Positions 14,672 through 50,444 of a stretch of DNA of 64,000 nt are shown here, in pieces. The notes beneath the pieces were generated by a model. That model ran no database searches. It was given only the letters and a program-made list of their open reading frames with translations, and was not told the origin of the DNA. The first letter of the stretch is position 1. Each line of letters begins with the position of its first letter. The stretch lies in NCBI GenBank assembly GCA_035310725.1, contig DATGDT010000257.1:1216-65215 (forward strand), read 5' to 3'. The position numbers and the translations under genes were made by a program. The stretch comes from Gemmatimonadales bacterium (GTDB lineage: Bacteria > Gemmatimonadota > Gemmatimonadetes > Gemmatimonadales > GWC2-71-9).

Positions 14672-15098
14672 GTGACACTCGACCTCTACGCCCGGCACAA
14701 GTCCGAGTACATCGCCCCCCGGATCGCCGGCCTTCTTGACGATCGGGGCCGCCAGGTACCTGACTGTGGCGGGACGCGGTGACCCCAATGGACCCGCGTT
14801 CGGCGCCGCAGTCGGGGCGCTGTACGGCATCGCGTATACGATCAAGATGGCCAAGAAGGCCGGCGGCCGCACCCTGGAGGCCCGAGTACGGTTGGAAACG
14901 CAGCGCGAGGGCCGGTGCGTGCAGATGCTGCACCGCGGTCCCTACCGGGCGGAGCACGCCACCATCACCGCGATGGTGGCGTTCGCCCGCGGCCGGGGAC
15001 TGCGCCCACGGGGCCGGCACCACGAGATCTACCTCTCCGACCCGCGGCGCGTCGCTCCAGCGAAACTGCGCACCATTCTCCGGCAACCCGTGCGTTAG
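14672..15098 (+). pseudogene. Decayed GyrI-like (SOUL/small-molecule-binding) gene with a frameshift in a C6 run plus an apparent internal deletion
   Basis: Frame A runs GTG 14672 to TGA 14780-14782 (VTLDLYARHKSEYIAPR...). Frame B is ORF 14736-15098 (..TIGAARYLTVAGRGDPNGPAFGAAVGALYGIAYTIKMAKKAGG...HHEIYLSDPRRVAPAKLRTILRQPV). Removing one C from cccccc (14715-14720) joins them. Confidence 0.6.
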
Positions 15099-16036
15099 GC
15101 GGCTTCGATCCCGAGTACGCCGGCGTTCGTCTTCGAGCGCTTGAGCATGGCCAGCAGGTTCTCCATGGCCTGCGTGGGAGGCAGTCCCACCAGACGGCGG
15201 CGCAGCTCCTGCCGCGCGGTCACCACCGCCGGTGGGGCGAGCAGTTCCTCCCGCCGGGTCCCACTCGCGGCGATATCCACGGCAGGGTAGATGCGCCGGT
15301 CCGCCATCTCGCGGGTGAGGCGCAGTTCGGCGTTGCCCGTCCCCTTGAACTCCTCGAAGATCACGTCGTCCATGCGGCTCTCGGTTTCGACGAGCGCGGT
15401 CGCGATGACGGTGAGCGATCCCCCGTCGGGCACGGCGCGGGCCGACCCGAACAGGGCCTTGGGTTTGGCCATCGCGTTCGCATCGAGCCCACCCGACATC
15501 GTTCGCCCGCTCGAGCGGCCCGCCGTGTTGTGCGAGCGCGCCAGGCGAGTGAGTGAGTCGAGGACGATCACGACGTCGCGTCCGAGCTCGACCTGGCGCC
15601 GAGCGTGCTCGAACACCATGTCGGCCACCGCCACATGCCGCTCGTGCGGCAGATCGAAGCTGGATGCGATGACCTCACCGCGGCCCCAATCGATCATCTC
15701 GCTCACTTCTTCGGGCCGCTCATCGACCAGCAGGATGAGCAGCTCCACCTGCGGATGATTCAGGGCGACGCCTTCCGCCACCGCCTGCAGCACCGTCGTC
15801 TTCCCCGCCTTCGGCGGCGACACGATGAGGGCACGCTGGCCGAACCCGAACGGGCAGACCAGATCGATGACGCGCTGAATGTCTCCGGTCCGCTGGCTCT
15901 GCTGGCTCACCGTCTCCAGACGCAGCGGCCGTGATGGATGGACCGCGCCGAGCGCGGAGAACTCGGGACGCTCACCCATCCGCTCCGGAGCGAGGCCGTT
16001 CACGCTGACGACCCGCCCACCCTCGAGCGTCACCAC
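15095..16036 (-). CDS. rho: Transcription termination factor Rho, ATPase core only (N-terminal domain missing or unclear start)
   Basis: ORF 313 aa with Walker A SPPKAGKTTVLQ, LLVDERPEEV, VLDSLTRLARS and SLTVIATALVETESRMDDVIFEEFKGTGNAEL. The frame stays open upstream to TAG at 16193-16195 but contains no ATG/GTG/TTG there. Confidence 0.85.
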   Translation of the reverse strand: MVTLEGGRVVSVNGLAPERMGERPEFSALGAVHPSRPLRLETVSQQSQRTGDIQRVIDLVCPFGFGQRALIVSPPKAGKTTVLQAVAEGVALNHPQVELLILLVDERPEEVSEMIDWGRGEVIASSFDLPHERHVAVADMVFEHARRQVELGRDVVIVLDSLTRLARSHNTAGRSSGRTMSGGLDANAMAKPKALFGSARAVPDGGSLTVIATALVETESRMDDVIFEEFKGTGNAELRLTREMADRRIYPAVDIAASGTRREELLAPPAVVTARQELRRRLVGLPPTQAMENLLAMLKRSKTNAGVLGIEAA

Positions 16037-16184
16037 GTCGCCGCGGCGCAGGCCCGGGAGACGAACCCCCGGGTCGCCGCGGGCGGGCAGGTAGCTGTTG
16101 GCCGCGAACCGCAGGGCGCCGCCCTTGGGAGCGGGATCGAACCAGCCGGTGATTGGTGGCAGGGGGTGACCTCGCTGGAAATAT

Positions 16185-16266
16185 GCTATCGGCTATCAGC
16201 TATCGGCAGGGTGCGTAGCCCTGGGCCACCCGTCAGCCGAGAGGCCGATAGCCGATAGCCGATAGC
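16185..16266. repeat. Heptamer-array palindrome: (GCTATCG)(GCTATCA)(GCTATCG)GC, 36-nt spacer, GC(CGATAGC)x3
   Basis: Left arm is 16185-16207 and right arm is 16244-16266. The arms are 22/23 complementary, with one A/C mismatch at 16198/16253. Confidence 0.95.
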
Positions 16267-16282
16267 TTATCTTCCCTCGCAC

Positions 16283-18082
16283 ATGCGCCAAGCCAACATC
16301 CGCAACTTCTGCATCGTCGCCCATATCGACCACGGGAAGTCCACCCTCGCCGACCGCCTGATCGAGCTCACGGGCACGCTCGATAAGCGCCTGATGCGCG
16401 AGCAGGTGCTCGACACCATGGATCTGGAGCGCGAGCGGGGCATCACGATCAAGCTGAACGCGGTCCGGATGGGCTACCACGCGCGCGACGGGCAGGTCTA
16501 CGAGCTCAACCTGATCGACACTCCCGGGCACGTCGACTTCACCTACGAAGTCTCGCGCTCCCTGGCGGCCTGCGAGGGAGCGATCCTCGTCGTGGACGCC
16601 TCGCAGGGCATCCAGGCGCAGACGGTGTCCAACCTGTTCCTGGCGCTGGACGCCGGCCTCGAGATCATCCCCGTGTTGAACAAGATCGATCTCCCGGGCG
16701 CGGAGCCCGACAAGCGGGCGCAGGAGATACACGACCTGATCGGAGCCAAGCCGGAAGAGATCCTGCGCATTTCCGCCAAAGACGGGACCGGAGTCCCCGA
16801 AGTCCTCGAGGCCGTCGTCCAGCGCGTCCCGCATCCCCGGGGGGAGTCCGGGGCGCCACTGCGCGCGCTGATCTTCGATTCCTACTACGACCGCTACCGC
16901 GGCGCGATCCCCAGCATCCGCGTAGTCGATGGCCAGCTGCGGCCCGGGATGAAGATCGCGTTCGGCGCCCACAAGGACGATCTCTACGAGGTCGACGAAG
17001 TGGGCTACCTGCAGCTCGGCCACAAGCCGACGGAGCAGCTGGAGGCGGGCGAGGTCGGCTACTTCATCGCCAACATCCGCGGGGTGCGGGAAACCCGCCC
17101 GGGCGACACCGTGCTCGATGCCGAGCATCGCGACGCGCCACTGCTCCTCGGCTATCGGGACATTCAGTCGATGGTGTTCGCGGGACTCTATCCCACGAAC
17201 GCCGAGCAGTACGAAGAGCTGCGCGACGCCCTCGCCAAGCTCCAGATGAACGACGCCTCGCTGCACTACGAGCCGGAAACCTCGGTGGCGCTGGGGTTCG
17301 GGTTCCGCTGCGGATTTCTCGGCCTGCTCCACATGGAGATCGTGCGCGAGCGGCTGGAGCGCGAGTTCGACCTCGACCTGATCTCCACGGTGCCCAACGT
17401 GGAGTATCACGTCTACAAGACCGACGGTACGAAGGAGATCGTGGAGAATCCGAGCGCGATGCCGCACGGCACGGGTGTGGAGCGCGTGGAAGAGCCGTAC
17501 GTGAAGGCGCGGATCCTGACGCCGGCCGAATACATCGGCGCCATCATGAAGCTCGGCCAGGAGCGCCGCGGCGTGTACCAGGGGATGCACTACGTGGACC
17601 CGACGCGCGTCGATTTCACCTTCGAATTCCCGCTGGCCGAGATCATCCTCGATTTCTACGACAAACTGAAGACCGTGTCGCGCGGCTACGCCTCGCTCGA
17701 CTACGAGTTCCTGGGCTACCGGCCGAGCGAGCTCATCAAGCTCGACCTGCTGCTCAATGGCGAGGCCGTGGACGCGTTCAGCGTCATCATCCACCGCGAC
17801 AAGGCCTATGACTGGGGTCGCAAGATCGCCGAGAAGCTGAAGGAGCTGATCCCTCGACAGCTGTTCGAAGTGATCATCCAGGCCGCCATCGGCAGTAAGG
17901 TGATCGCCCGCGAGTCCATCCGCCCGCTGCGCAAGAACGTGCTCGCCAAGTGCTACGGCGGCGATGTGACGCGCAAGCGCAAGCTCCTGGAGAAGCAGAA
18001 AGAAGGCAAGAAGCGGATGAAGCAGGTCGGCACCGTGGAGATTCCGCAGGAGGCATTCCTGGCGGTCCTGCAGGTCGACTGA
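16283..18082 (+). CDS. lepA: Elongation factor 4
   Basis: ORF 599 aa: [33 protein letters not shown], and a C-terminal LepA_C region ([25 protein letters not shown]). Confidence 0.97.
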
Positions 18083-25056: not shown

Positions 25057-26279
25057 ACCGGGGACGGGGGACGAGGGACGAGGGACGGGCCTGGATCATC
25101 GCGGCCATCGCGATAGTCCTCGTCACGCTTCCCTCGTCCCCCATCCCTCTCTTCGCCCAGCGCCCGACCCTCGAGCAGCAGATGCGCGACAATCAGCAGC
25201 GCCTGGAGGGCATCCGCCGAGAGCGGACCCAGGCGCAGCAGGATCTGGAGCGGCTGCGCGCCCAGGTCCACAGCCTCGCCGACGAGCTGACCAACCTCGA
25301 GCATCAAAAAGAGACCACGAACCGCATCGTGAACGAGCTGGACCGGCAGATCCTCCAGCTGGGCGACGCGATCGACCGCATCACGGTGGACCTGGTGCTG
25401 GCCCAGGACGCGCTGGACGAGAAGCGCGCTGTGGCGGAGCGGCGGCTCGTCGACATCTACAAGCGCGGCCCGTTGTACGCCTACCAGGTGCTGTTCGCGG
25501 CCGAGAGTTTCGGCGACCTCCTGTCGCGGTACAAGTACCTCTACCTGATCAGCCGGCAGGACCGCCAGCTCGCCAACGAGATGAACCGGCTGCGGGATCG
25601 CATCGCACGGGAGCGGCGCGGTCTGGTGGAAGCGCGCGACGCGCTGGAGCGGCGCCGCACCGAGCGGTCCGAAGAGCTGCAGCATTTCGTCGATCTCGCC
25701 TCGCAGCGGCAACGCCGGCTGCGCGAGACCCGCCGTGACGTGGAGCGGGTCCAGGAGCGGCTCACCGCCACCGACGCCGAGGAGCGGCGGGTCGCCAACG
25801 CCATCGCCACGCTCGAGCGGGCGCGCCGCGAGGCCGAGGCCCGGGGCGCCGTGCCGACGACCGGCGCGATCACGAGCGGGAGTCTGGGCTCGCTCGACTG
25901 GCCGGTGACCGGCCGCGTGGTCTACGACTTTGGCCCCGCCGCGGGGCCCGACAACACGCGCATCACCTGGCATGGCATCGGTATCGCCGCGGACGAGGGC
26001 ACGGCCGTGAAGGCGGTCGCGCCCGGGACGGTCGCCCTGGTGGGGCCCCTCGGCACTTACCTCACGACGGTGATCGTGGATCACGGCGGCGGCTTCTACA
26101 CGATCTACGCCTCGCTCAACGACGCGGCGGTCTCCAAGGGCGACCGCGTGGTCCGCGGACAGCTGCTCGGTCACGTCGGCGGCGGCACGACCGAGCAGGG
26201 CCCGCACCTGCACTTCGAGATCCGGGGCCCGGGGCAGATTGCGCTCGATCCGCTGAATTGGCTGAAACCGAAACCTTAA
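25053..26279 (+). CDS. EnvC-like murein hydrolase activator (coiled coil + M23/LytM domain)
   Basis: Real part of ORF 24663-26279. ATG 25053 forms an ATGA overlap with ftsX. It has a signal-anchor WIIAAIAIVLVTL, a long coiled coil, and a C-terminal M23 region (GIGIAADEGTAVKAVAPGTV...VIVDHGGGFYTIYASL...GPHLHFEIR). Confidence 0.85.
   Translation: MNRGRGTRDEGRAWIIAAIAIVLVTLPSSPIPLFAQRPTLEQQMRDNQQRLEGIRRERTQAQQDLERLRAQVHSLADELTNLEHQKETTNRIVNELDRQILQLGDAIDRITVDLVLAQDALDEKRAVAERRLVDIYKRGPLYAYQVLFAAESFGDLLSRYKYLYLISRQDRQLANEMNRLRDRIARERRGLVEARDALERRRTERSEELQHFVDLASQRQRRLRETRRDVERVQERLTATDAEERRVANAIATLERARREAEARGAVPTTGAITSGSLGSLDWPVTGRVVYDFGPAAGPDNTRITWHGIGIAADEGTAVKAVAPGTVALVGPLGTYLTTVIVDHGGGFYTIYASLNDAAVSKGDRVVRGQLLGHVGGGTTEQGPHLHFEIRGPGQIALDPLNWLKPKP
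25060..25144. repeat. Heptamer array (GGGGACG)x2(AGGGACG)x2 with a degenerate inverted partner, inside the envC 5' end
   Basis: Direct units span 25060-25087. acgggggacgaggg (25064-25077) is 13/14 complementary to ccctcgtcccccat (25131-25144). An inner palindrome atcgcg/cgcgat lies at 25098-25114. Confidence 0.85.
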
Positions 26280-27224
26280 ATGCGTCGAGCGAAGGCGTCG
26301 AGCGAAGGCGTCGAGCAGCGGCGTCGAGCGAGAACGTATTCGCTCGACGGTTCTGCTCGACGATTTCGCTCGACGTTTGTGCTCGACGCCTTTCTGTTGT
26401 CGTGCCTCGCCTGTGCCGCCCCGACGAACCGCCTGGAAGTGGCCGGCACCGTCGAGATCCGTGACATCGGCATCGCTCCACTCGCCGCCGGCCGGGTCGT
26501 ACGCCTGCTGAAGGACGAAGGCGATTCGGTACGACGCGGGGACACCATCGCGGTGCTCGAGCAGCCCGGCCTCCCGGCGCTCATCGGCCAGCGGCAGGCC
26601 CAGGCCCAGGCGGCACAGCGGCGCACGGCGGAGGTCCGTGCGGCGGTCGCCGACAGCACGCGGGCGGCGAACGATCTCGCTCGCGCGGGCTCCCTGCGCG
26701 AGCAGGGCATCATGTCGGCGCAACAGTACGACGCGCTGGTGACCGCCGCCGCGGCGGCCACGGCCCGGCTCCAGGCGGTGCACGCGGCCGCGAGCGAGTC
26801 GCGCGCCGCCGCCGCGGGACTCGCGGCCACCGAGGCGATCCGCGACGAGCTCGTGCTGCTCGCTCCGGCGGACGGCGTCATCCTCACGCGCTATCTCGAG
26901 GCGGGCGAGGCCGCGAACGTCGGCGTGCCGGTCGTGTCGCTCGGCGTCGTGGCACAACCCTGGATCCGCGCGTACGTCGGTGAGCCGTACATCGCGCGGG
27001 TGCACCTTGGCCAGACGGTGACGATTCGCGCCGACGGTCTGGCGACGCCCGTCAGCGGACGCATCGTCGACATCGCGACGCGCGCCGAGTTCACGCCGCG
27101 CGCCGCCCTCACCGACCGCGAGCGCGCCGATCTCGTCTTCGCCATCAAGGTGGGATTCGACGATCCGGCCGGGCGTCTCAAGGCCGGCCTGCCCGTGACG
27201 CTCGAGCTGCCGCTCACGCCGTGA
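26280..27224 (+). CDS. HlyD/YbhG-family membrane-fusion (periplasmic adaptor) protein of the ABC-2 exporter
   Basis: ORF 314 aa. Resembles E. coli YbhG (biotinyl-lipoyl-like GRVVRLLKDEGDSVRRGDTIAVL; C-terminal RAEFTPRAALTDRERADLVFAIKV). Start is uncertain: ATG 26280 or in-frame GTG 26379 (LDAFLLSCLACAAP lipobox-like). Confidence 0.8.
   Translation: MRRAKASSEGVEQRRRARTYSLDGSARRFRSTFVLDAFLLSCLACAAPTNRLEVAGTVEIRDIGIAPLAAGRVVRLLKDEGDSVRRGDTIAVLEQPGLPALIGQRQAQAQAAQRRTAEVRAAVADSTRAANDLARAGSLREQGIMSAQQYDALVTAAAAATARLQAVHAAASESRAAAAGLAATEAIRDELVLLAPADGVILTRYLEAGEAANVGVPVVSLGVVAQPWIRAYVGEPYIARVHLGQTVTIRADGLATPVSGRIVDIATRAEFTPRAALTDRERADLVFAIKVGFDDPAGRLKAGLPVTLELPLTP
26282..26390. repeat. 109-nt symmetric array: four 13-nt-period direct units (core CGTCGAGC) followed by four inverted units (core GCTCGACG)
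   Basis: Direct cores start at 26283, 26296, 26309 and 26322. Inverted cores start at 26342, 26355, 26368 and 26381. All four core pairs share one symmetry axis (position sums 52671). The first two units are identical (gcgtcgagcgaag). Confidence 0.95.
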
Positions 27225-29071: not shown

Positions 29072-29156
29072 GGGAGTGGGGAGTGGGGAGTGGGGAGTGG
29101 TACTCGGCGGAGCGAAGACGGAGTTCCGCCACCGTCGGGTACCACTCCCCACTCCC
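29072..29156. repeat. Heptamer-array palindrome: (GGGAGTG)x4 GTAC, 35-nt spacer, GTAC C(ACTCCCC)(ACTCCC)
   Basis: Direct units span 29072-29099. An 18-bp perfect stem pairs gggagtggggagtggtac (29086-29103) with gtaccactccccactccc (29139-29156). An inner ggcgga/tccgcc pairing sits in the spacer. Confidence 0.95.
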
Positions 29157-49560: not shown

Positions 49561-50444
49561 CGCGCCGCCAGGCCGACCTCGCGCTGATCTCCGCCTGCCT
49601 GCTCTGGGGAGTCAGCTTCGTCGTCGTGAAGCTCGCGCTCGAGGACGCCACGCCGCTGGCCTTCGCCGCGGTGCGCTTCGCGATCGGCGCCCTGCTCCTC
49701 GCGCCGTTCGCCCGGCTGCGCCAGCCCTTCACCGGTGCCGAGGTGGGAGCCGGCGCCCTGCTCGCGGGTCTGCTTGGAATCGGGTTTCTCGCCCAGACCG
49801 CCGGCCTGGTGTGGACGACGCCCTCCCGCTCCGCGTTCATCGTCGCCATCTCGTCGGTGCTCGCACCGGCCATGGCGGCCCTGGCCCTGCGCGAGCGCCC
49901 CGCCTGGCCGCTGGTCACGGCGGTGCTCCTCGCCGCATTGGGCACCTACTGGCTGACCGATCCCGAGGCGGGCGGGCTGAATCGTGGGGACATGCTCACG
50001 CTCGTCACGGCCGTGCTGTTCGGGGCCCAGATCGTGGCGACCACCGCCCTGTCCCGCCGCTTCGACCCGTTTCGCCTCGTGTGGATGCAGATCGCCGGAA
50101 CCGCGGTCCTGGGCGCCGTCGGGGCTGCCCTGCTCGAGCGGCCCGTGATCCACTGGACGACCACGTTCGTCTGGGCGCTCGCCTACACCACTGTCGGCCC
50201 GACCGTGGTCGCGTTGCTGCTGCAGATGGTGTCACAGCGGCACATGTCATCGGCACGGGCGGCGCTGCTCTTCTGCTTCGAGACGCTGTTCGCCGCGGGG
50301 ACGTCGTGGATGGTTTTGGGCGAGCACCTCTCGGCACAACAGTGGTTGGGTGGAGGTCTGATTCTCGGCGGGCTGATGCTGGCAGAACTGAAGGCGTCGT
50401 CGGCTATCGGCTATCAGCCATCGGCAGAGCGCGATTCGGGTTGA
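49557..50444 (+). CDS. EamA/DMT-family transporter
   Basis: Part of ORF 49002-50444. GTG 49557 forms a GTGA overlap with uvrA. It has 10 TM segments and two EamA repeats. The last ~15 codons (SSAIGYQPSAERDSG) and the stop are encoded by the GCTATCG repeat copy. Confidence 0.8.
   Translation: MTRRQADLALISACLLWGVSFVVVKLALEDATPLAFAAVRFAIGALLLAPFARLRQPFTGAEVGAGALLAGLLGIGFLAQTAGLVWTTPSRSAFIVAISSVLAPAMAALALRERPAWPLVTAVLLAALGTYWLTDPEAGGLNRGDMLTLVTAVLFGAQIVATTALSRRFDPFRLVWMQIAGTAVLGAVGAALLERPVIHWTTTFVWALAYTTVGPTVVALLLQMVSQRHMSSARAALLFCFETLFAAGTSWMVLGEHLSAQQWLGGGLILGGLMLAELKASSAIGYQPSAERDSG
50403..50433. repeat. Second copy of the GCTATCG heptamer element (left arm and start of spacer)
   Basis: gctatcg gctatca gccatcg gcagagcgcg versus 16185-16215 gctatcg gctatca gctatcg gcagggtgcg gives 28/31 identity. 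A degenerate right-arm unit, ggcgata, starts at 50461, 35 nt after the left arm (36 nt at locus 1). Confidence 0.85.

Follow-up and report, generated by a model that had tools for sequence, protein, structure and literature searches.

Rho proteins that lack the N-terminal helix-bundle domain have been described as 'Group B' by D'Heygere et al. 2013 (via PMC11347177) and as 'Type 4', with 58 sequences, by Moreira et al. (Nucleic Acids Research, 2024; PMC11347177). The latter authors assign versions with a non-homologous N-terminal region to 'subtype 2d', count a Rho as functional when an RNA-binding domain is detectable along with the ATPase domain, and report that Fusobacterium nucleatum possesses only a Type 4 Rho, which is essential; Gemmatimonadota are unmentioned in the main text of their survey (PMC11347177). 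Here we analysed the rho gene in a 64,000-nucleotide (nt) stretch of about 70% GC from a Gemmatimonadales bacterium (contig DATGDT010000257.1), hereafter the window, in which rho lies on the minus strand and is divergent from lepA. It is probably an intact, naturally short Rho-family gene of a Gemmatimonadales clade, most likely initiated at a CUG codon and encoding 355 rather than 313 amino acids (aa).

The annotated minus-strand open reading frame (ORF), 15095..16036, starts at GTG and yields a 313-aa product identical to the NCBI protein MGE5745270.1 from a Gemmatimonadota metagenome-assembled genome (MAG). The first-pass annotation of the window had described this ORF from its first canonical start and had noted that the frame remains open for 52 more codons (16192..16037), up to a TAG inside a heptamer palindrome, with no ATG, GTG or TTG among them; our reading of the minus strand reproduces each of these points. 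The extension contains the near-cognate codons ATA 16189, CTG 16162, ATC 16153, and CTG at 16114, 16090 and 16051. Only 120 nt separate CTG 16162 from the start of lepA, and because lepA begins at 16283 on the plus strand, the helix bundle of about 47 aa cannot be encoded, as had also been claimed. Sequencing or assembly error was considered and rejected: a second public assembly (GCA_050263815.1, JBLNFO010000411.1, 25,173 bp, a record distinct from the window) is identical in DNA over the aligned stretch 16020-16297, and the CTG is present in nine other related loci.

A search of a protein collection returned thousands of homologs, from which the best 120 cluster representatives, 79-91% identical to the window protein, were used. 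Met occupies one fixed homologous codon (MPPITGWFDP...) in 84 of the 120, giving lengths of 353-355 aa, while the same codon is called as a Leu start in six and as a Val start in one. A further 25, about a fifth of these representatives of the short-Rho family, have Leu at the start-homologous codon and are mis-called because gene callers do not consider CTG; 20 are too long, being called from an upstream start, and five are too short. The five short calls, the window protein among them, begin at differing internal codons, so that a start at the window's Val is not the norm in the clade; the shortened calls of close relatives measure 313, 323, 337 and 339 aa. Similarly, 29 near-identical database entries from the NCBI and JGI pipelines are annotated with 302-318 aa. 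Judged from these alignments, both the 313-aa annotation and those of the 29 entries appear to be gene-caller artefacts.

At the DNA level we compared 18 loci, comprising the window and 17 relatives. The start-homologous codon is CTG in ten of them (the window, L001, L002, L161-L166 and L168), TTG in L167 and ATG in seven, and four CTG loci (the window, L001, L002 and L162) contain no in-frame ATG, GTG or TTG before the next upstream stop. Over codons 2-43 after the CTG, the ten CTG loci show 249, 143 and 846 pairwise differences at codon positions 1, 2 and 3, with 688 synonymous versus 282 non-synonymous codon differences. For the nine codons before the CTG, compared in seven loci, the corresponding numbers are 64, 82 and 76, with 20 synonymous and 103 non-synonymous differences. 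The third-position substitution bias, that is, the coding signal, begins exactly at CTG 16162. The window gene carries a CTG at the ATG codon of its orthologs, has no usable canonical start, and is under coding constraint from that codon onward.

The sequence upstream of this codon shows a parallel pattern. A GAGGT box resembling a Shine-Dalgarno (SD) sequence is located 6 nt upstream of the CTG, and a purine-rich SD core is found in nine of the ten CTG loci and in none of the eight ATG/TTG loci (Fisher p=4e-4, a value that overstates independence because the loci are related); the leaders of the latter read ..ccttcctaaATG, without an SD core. CUG initiates in E. coli at about 1-2% of the AUG level (bioRxiv 10.1101/063800), and for this reason the gain of the SD box may be compensatory. 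In a neighbour-joining tree of low resolution, eight of the ten CTG loci group in a main clade, and the other two are separate lineages placed among ATG/TTG ones; on this topology the start codon seems to have changed from ATG to CTG on more than one occasion. Together, the substitution pattern, the SD box and the recurrence most likely put the coding start at or beside CTG 16162. A non-canonical start had been one of three options raised in the first-pass annotation, which named no codon, and it is the option that these comparisons support.

To characterize the protein, we searched the extended translation with hidden Markov models, as had been proposed earlier. Pfam returned only the ATPase domain PF00006 (E=1.8e-21); Rho_N (PF07498) gave no match at E<=1, and Rho_RNA_bind (PF07497) gave none even at E<=10 with the window protein, its first 61 residues or the relative P0099. 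In positive controls, PF07498 scored 28.7 bits on a canonical Gemmatimonadaceae Rho, and PF07497 scored 111 bits on canonical Rho and 42-44 bits on a second Gemmatimonadota form, type B, described below. The protein passes the Rho model NF006886 (396.5 bits, cutoff 315) and is below the cutoff of TIGR00767 (392.3 bits, cutoff 509.45), with both alignments running from model position 115 onward only. Against PDB sequences, phmmer aligned the protein only from residue 50, so that profile-profile and structure comparisons were needed for the N-terminus.

These comparisons place a trimmed OB fold at the N-terminus. In a MAFFT alignment with E. coli Rho (a sequence identical to PDB 1PV4) and other Rho proteins, TGWFDPAPK-GGALRFAANSYLPARGDPGV and RLPGLRRGD align with OB segments of E. 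coli Rho; the register is the same as in the earlier manual alignment, whose reading of the upstream codons as a shrunken Rho OB fold is essentially right. Relative to E. coli Rho, the alignment contains two deletions of about 5 and 12-17 residues, and the SPSQI segment is lost. By hhalign, the N-terminus matches the type B OB fold with 99.6% probability (E=1.5e-23) and the canonical OB fold directly with 90% probability (E=1.4e-6), while the type B and canonical OB folds match each other with 98.5%. The AlphaFold model of the 355-aa protein has a mean predicted local distance difference test score (pLDDT) of 88.5 and a predicted template-modelling score of 0.90, and its strands 4-11, 14-18, 43-47 and 50-54 reach pLDDT 89-94. 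Foldseek aligned this model with E. coli Rho chains over 365-371 columns at 45% identity, with a query-normalised template-modelling score of 0.93. The profile matches and the predicted model indicate that the first 50 residues are Rho-derived and form an OB fold homologous to that of Rho. Residues 57-96 connect the OB remnant to the ATPase core, and the helix bundle, residues 1-47 of E. coli Rho, has no counterpart. The earlier description of a Rho without room for its N-terminal domain therefore holds for the helix-bundle half and fails for the OB half, which is present in trimmed form.

Residue conservation differs between the RNA site and the motor. Across 97 distinct N-termini of the family, thirteen positions never vary: G6, W7, D9, G15, R18, L25, D30, R39, R40, G41, D42, N55 and G56. 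We take the primary RNA site of Rho to comprise F62, F64, R66, D78, Y80, E108 and Y110 (E. coli numbering), of which R66 and D78 are the readers of the 3' cytosine. The equivalents of these two (R18 and D30) are kept. The F62 equivalent is Gly, the F64 equivalent is Ala in the window protein (A 62, F 29 in the family), the Y80 position is never aromatic in the family, and the E108/Y110 hairpin is, according to the alignment used, either substituted or deleted, in line with the earlier remark that the GFGF aromatic RNA-binding residues appear replaced. In the motor, the equivalents of K181, K184, T185, E211, R212, D265, R269, R353 and R366 are identical. The substitutions found there are K283 to R, K326 to R and T286 to S, so that the Q-loop and R-loop lysines are now Arg. 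The P-loop, catalytic Glu, Arg finger, Q-loop and R-loop of a RecA-type ATPase are all found.

These data bear on the simplest alternative, namely that translation begins at GTG 16036, that the product is a 313-aa, ATPase-only Rho-like protein, and that the 52 codons upstream are non-coding. This codon is indeed the first canonical start, and two annotation pipelines arrive at comparable lengths for the near-identical sequences. However, the 42 codons from CTG to GTG are strongly biased toward third-position and synonymous changes across ten loci, 11 residues of this stretch are invariant in the 97 sequences, and the stretch is predicted to fold with high pLDDT (89-94) into a beta-barrel that superposes on the Rho OB fold. 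Moreover, no SD-like sequence precedes GTG 16036, and relatives are cut at varied internal codons, as happens with gene callers when the true start is invisible to them. We consider a GTG start very improbable.

The explanation that we favour is as follows. Translation would start at CUG 16162-16160, read as fMet, with the GAGGU box 6 nt upstream. The 355-aa product would consist of a cut-down OB subdomain, a connector and a complete Rho ATPase/translocase core, with the helix bundle absent by design. The gene would be expressed, and the protein would be a Rho-family hexameric RNA translocase, still able to assemble into rings and move along RNA. Primary-site recruitment of the protein to rut RNA rich in C may be weak or altered, and from this would follow a greater dependence on direct loading, on partners such as NusG and RNA polymerase, or on a co-resident canonical Rho. 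Finally, the weak CUG start and the compensating SD box may set low or regulated expression.

Several points weigh against this explanation. CUG is a very weak start codon in E. coli, and CUG initiation in the window gene itself rests on sequence comparison. The weight of the SD box hinges on the extent of Shine-Dalgarno pairing in Gemmatimonadota, and its association with CTG is drawn from related, non-independent loci; likewise, the tree behind the repeated origins is of low resolution. For the protein, the mapping of the first 15 residues differs between pairwise and multiple alignments, and RNA binding, ring formation and termination activity are deduced from conserved residues and the predicted fold alone. 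Two other near-cognate codons are also candidate starts: ATC 16153, which follows the CTG by three codons, and ATA 16189, which falls within the palindrome arm. Both ATC and ATA are permitted starts in genetic code table 11, AUA and AUC initiate in E. coli at about the same 1-2% level as CUG (bioRxiv 10.1101/063800), and the relatives P0258, P0265 and P0109 begin MTGW.., with ATG at the position of ATC 16153. Against these codons, most relatives start at the CTG-homologous codon, and the GAGGT box lies 15 nt from ATC 16153 and downstream of ATA 16189; the latter would in addition bring in the nine codons before the CTG, which are without a coding signature. Such a start is unlikely, and ATC 16153 is a minor alternative to CTG 16162.

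We also considered whether the gene has been damaged by the repeat element in the rho-lepA spacer. The palindrome arms are 27 nt long, consist of tandem GCTATCG heptamers, are 93% complementary and enclose a 36-nt loop; the predicted RNA fold has an energy of -71.8 kcal/mol (z=-5.35), and a search of the spacer against Rfam gave no family at threshold, only sub-threshold look-alikes of miRNA hairpins. Both upstream in-frame stops of rho sit in the left arm, and the palindrome ends 19 nt upstream of CTG 16162. In L081-L083 the palindrome is absent, the lepA-rho spacer measures only about 45 nt, and the rho N-terminus is the same as in the window. Palindromes of other heptamers are found at the same place in L001 (GTCGTCA), L084 (GCCATCA), L164 and L165. 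From this comparison the palindrome appears to be a variable, independent intergenic insertion that truncates nothing. The earlier idea of a gene clipped by the repeat was rejected, since palindrome-free relatives begin at the same codon and the element lies wholly upstream of it. The suggestion of a naturally minimal Rho paralog stands as far as size is concerned, given the family length of 353-355 aa and the proximity of lepA in the repeat-free relatives.

A broader version of the damage hypothesis, in which palindrome insertion or an ATG-to-CTG mutation abolished the start and left a decaying pseudogene or truncated remnant, would fit the closure of the frame by stops within the palindrome and the occurrence of palindromes in the spacers of the main CTG clade. 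It is contradicted by the N-terminal codon shared with the element-free relatives L081-L083, by the 19 nt between the palindrome and the CTG, by the intact catalytic residues, and by the persistence of the CTG state in a clade whose members share 79-91% protein identity with the window, keep intact reading frames and are under strong purifying selection along the whole gene. We regard decay as extremely improbable.

Comparable elements occur elsewhere in the window. What look like intergenic palindromes with tandem-heptamer arms, the heptamer differing from site to site, are located at 16181-16270, 29072-29156, 25060-25149, 50400-50425 and 2619-2643, and analogous ones are present in the relatives L001, L084, L161-L165 and L168. 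Tandem Repeats Finder reported the heptamers GCTATCG (16181-16270), GGGAGTG/CCACTCC (29072-29156) and GGGGACG (25060-25089), together with a lone arm at 50400-50425. These elements look like a family of mobile hairpins resembling repetitive extragenic palindromes or miniature inverted-repeat transposable elements. Additionally, positions 26282-26388 hold two adjacent 13-nt tandem arrays, GCGTCGAGCGAAG x3.8 followed by ATTCTGCTCGACG x4.0, whose units seem roughly reverse-complementary, and may be a longer-period counterpart of these repeat-armed palindromes. The short spacer of L081-L083, orthologous to window 16163-16282, contains on the lepA strand a -10-like box, GCTATATT, and since this box lies only about 9 nt before the lepA ATG, the lepA mRNA of these loci is suggested to be leaderless or near-leaderless. 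Read on the opposite strand, the same TATAGC motif could be the -10 box of rho.

Gemmatimonadota hold at least three kinds of Rho. The short kind (type A) has 353-355 aa and is divergent beside lepA in 15 of 17 related loci, the exceptions being L003 and L085. Type B has about 460-580 aa, with an Arg/Gly-rich disordered N-terminus, an OB fold detectable at 42-44 bits, no Rho_N and the GWFDP motif. The canonical kind has 417-425 aa with Rho_N, Rho_RNA_bind and ATPase domains, and Longimicrobiales (L014) have a fourth form, of about 380 aa, whose OB fold is intact. Type B loci (L004-L013, L015 and L087-L102) are widespread in Gemmatimonadaceae and are also found on closed contigs of 3.1-3.4 Mb; their N-terminus carries a conserved MTERRRPPRRGRG motif followed by 130-200 residues of Arg/Gly/Asp-rich low complexity with, for example, GDNR and REG repeats, and has no helix bundle.

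The presence of several kinds in the phylum raises the question of cellular role. The short protein may be a 'Group B' paralog with an accessory function, active only when the cell also contains a canonical full-length Rho, with which it might assemble into mixed hexamers whose other subunits provide the missing RNA-recruitment surfaces in trans. Such an arrangement is in keeping with the wide distribution of canonical Rho (Rho_N, Rho_RNA_bind, ATPase) in Gemmatimonadaceae MAGs, with type B, itself without Rho_N and with an Arg/Gly-rich disordered N-terminus, being the nearest relative outside the family, and with the second, shorter Rho copies described by Moreira et al. 2024 (PMC11347177), who propose hetero-hexamers. 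However, no genome with both kinds was found in the comparisons made, and tblastn detected no second rho in the window. Among the matches listed from a scan of GTDB genomes, a sparse sample, at least 3 short, at least about 13 type B-like and at least 3 canonical Gemmatimonadota loci all come from different assemblies. Comparison of protein accession blocks gave no match among the short, type B and canonical sets, and the neighbours of type B and canonical loci share nothing with those in the window. The label 'Gemmatimonadales bacterium' is attached to about half of the named short-form entries, as the largest group, and 'Gemmatimonadaceae' to none, while the named canonical entries almost all carry 'Gemmatimonadaceae bacterium'; these labels give a weak hint that short and canonical Rho belong to different lineages. 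The short form is also very conserved and syntenic with lepA, as expected for a housekeeping gene. We regard the paralog role as quite possible, if somewhat short of probable; it concerns the role in the cell and is compatible with the gene structure that we favour. More doubtful is the stronger proposal that the CUG-initiated 355-aa protein is the only Rho of the cell, which would carry out factor-dependent termination across the genome without classical rut recognition, by direct loading or via NusG or RNA polymerase, with its expression throttled by the conserved near-cognate start.

Table 1 Coordinates of the features at the rho-lepA locus (positions in the window).
Feature	Position	Strand	Basis or remark
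Proposed full rho coding sequence, 355 codons + TAA stop, CTG start	15095..16162	-	Relatives, substitution bias, AlphaFold, Foldseek
CTG, probable initiation codon at the site of the relatives' ATG	16160..16162	-	18-locus DNA comparison
GAGGT, Shine-Dalgarno-like box 6 nt upstream of CTG	16169..16173	-	SD-core comparison across loci
Trimmed OB-fold remnant of the Rho RNA-binding domain (predicted), residues 4-56	15995..16153	-	hhalign, AlphaFold; PF07497 undetected
RecA-type ATPase domain, residues 97-300	15263..15874	-	PF00006; P-loop SPPKAGKT at 15797-15820
GTG, first canonical start, source of the annotated 313-aa product; probably internal Val43	16034..16036	-	Purifying selection on 42 codons upstream
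In-frame stops TGA + TAG closing the rho frame upstream	16193..16198	-	TAG 16195-16193, TGA 16198-16196; inside palindrome arm
Palindrome with heptamer-repeat arms between rho and lepA, outside the rho gene and upstream of its start	16181..16270		Arms 16181-16207 / 16244-16270
lepA, divergent from rho, sets the upstream limit for rho	16283..18082	+	ORF list

Around the gene, a consensus promoter and terminator scan of 15950-16450 found nothing. On the other side of rho, a 120-aa ORF (14736-15098, plus strand) converges on it, with overlapping stop codons (TTAG at 15095-15098). In GCA_050263815.1 the corresponding ORF is annotated as GyrI-like (PF06445), and the versions of this ORF measure 196-197 aa in L164 and L165 and only 96 aa in L163; the GyrI-like gene may be shrinking in the lineage of the window. 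The two loci that break the synteny, L003 (DATJBO010000267.1) and L085, carry a short-form rho 77-79% identical on a 2.8-kb contig binned as 'Solirubrobacteraceae' (Actinomycetota), not beside lepA; the probable cause is a binning error, the alternative being that the copy was relocated.

These findings have consequences for the study of Rho. Domain-based surveys would score the short-Rho clade as having only a 'Rho-like ATPase'. Since short Rho without the N-terminal domain has already been described, no new kind of system is involved; the family offers a natural experiment in which the RNA-recruitment module has been whittled down while the motor has stayed under strong selection, and it bears on the debate over whether Rho is recruited RNA-first, by rut and the primary site, or polymerase-first. 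The repeated ATG-to-CTG change with gain of an SD box would be a case of compensatory evolution, in which rho dosage may be held low.

Compared with known near-cognate (CUG/AUU/AUC/AUA) initiation in bacteria, the window gene is alike in having an in-frame near-cognate codon at the ancestral ATG position and an SD sequence at optimal spacing. It differs in that the CTG is shared by roughly one in five members of a protein family, spread over at least 2-3 lineages, and appears, on the evidence of the aligned leaders, to be coupled to the gain of an SD box that is absent from ATG-type relatives.

Compared with known Rho proteins, the window protein resembles Type 4/Group B in the absence of Rho_N, in the conserved ATPase, Q-loop, R-loop and bicyclomycin-pocket residues, in its occurrence in high-GC genomes and in a length (about 355 aa) near that of other short forms. 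Type 4 keeps a detectable RNA-binding domain, whereas the window protein has only the trimmed remnant, with its two deletions and with the aromatic primary-site residues gone; because the domain is undetected, the protein would be 'Rho-like' (ATPase only) under the rules of Moreira et al. The protomer fold of E. coli Rho (PDB 1PV4, 3ICE, 5JJI) is matched from about residue 50 of E. coli Rho to the C-terminus, and K181, K184, E211, R212, D265, R353 and R366, plus R66 and D78, are shared, while residues 1-47 have no counterpart and F62, F64 and Y80 are substituted. Type B corresponds to subtype 2d of Moreira et al. and, at 56-59% identity, is the closest form outside the family; it shares the GWFDP..GG.(I/L)R..SYL..GD motif block and the lack of Rho_N; unlike the short kind, it has a Pfam-detectable OB fold, equivalents of F64 and Y80 and a disordered extension of 130-200 aa, and it is not located beside lepA. 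The curated family NF041509 ('paralog_Rho2, transcription termination factor Rho, short form', about 360 aa) aligns with the window protein over model positions 33-357 of 360, and the scores of the window protein (379.8 bits), P0099 (370.4 bits) and the other Gemmatimonadota forms tested are all below its cutoff of 628 bits, which marks the window protein as a separate short-Rho lineage. Within the known class of short Rho, the window gene represents a variant that has eroded further and belongs to a clade in which a probable CTG start recurs.

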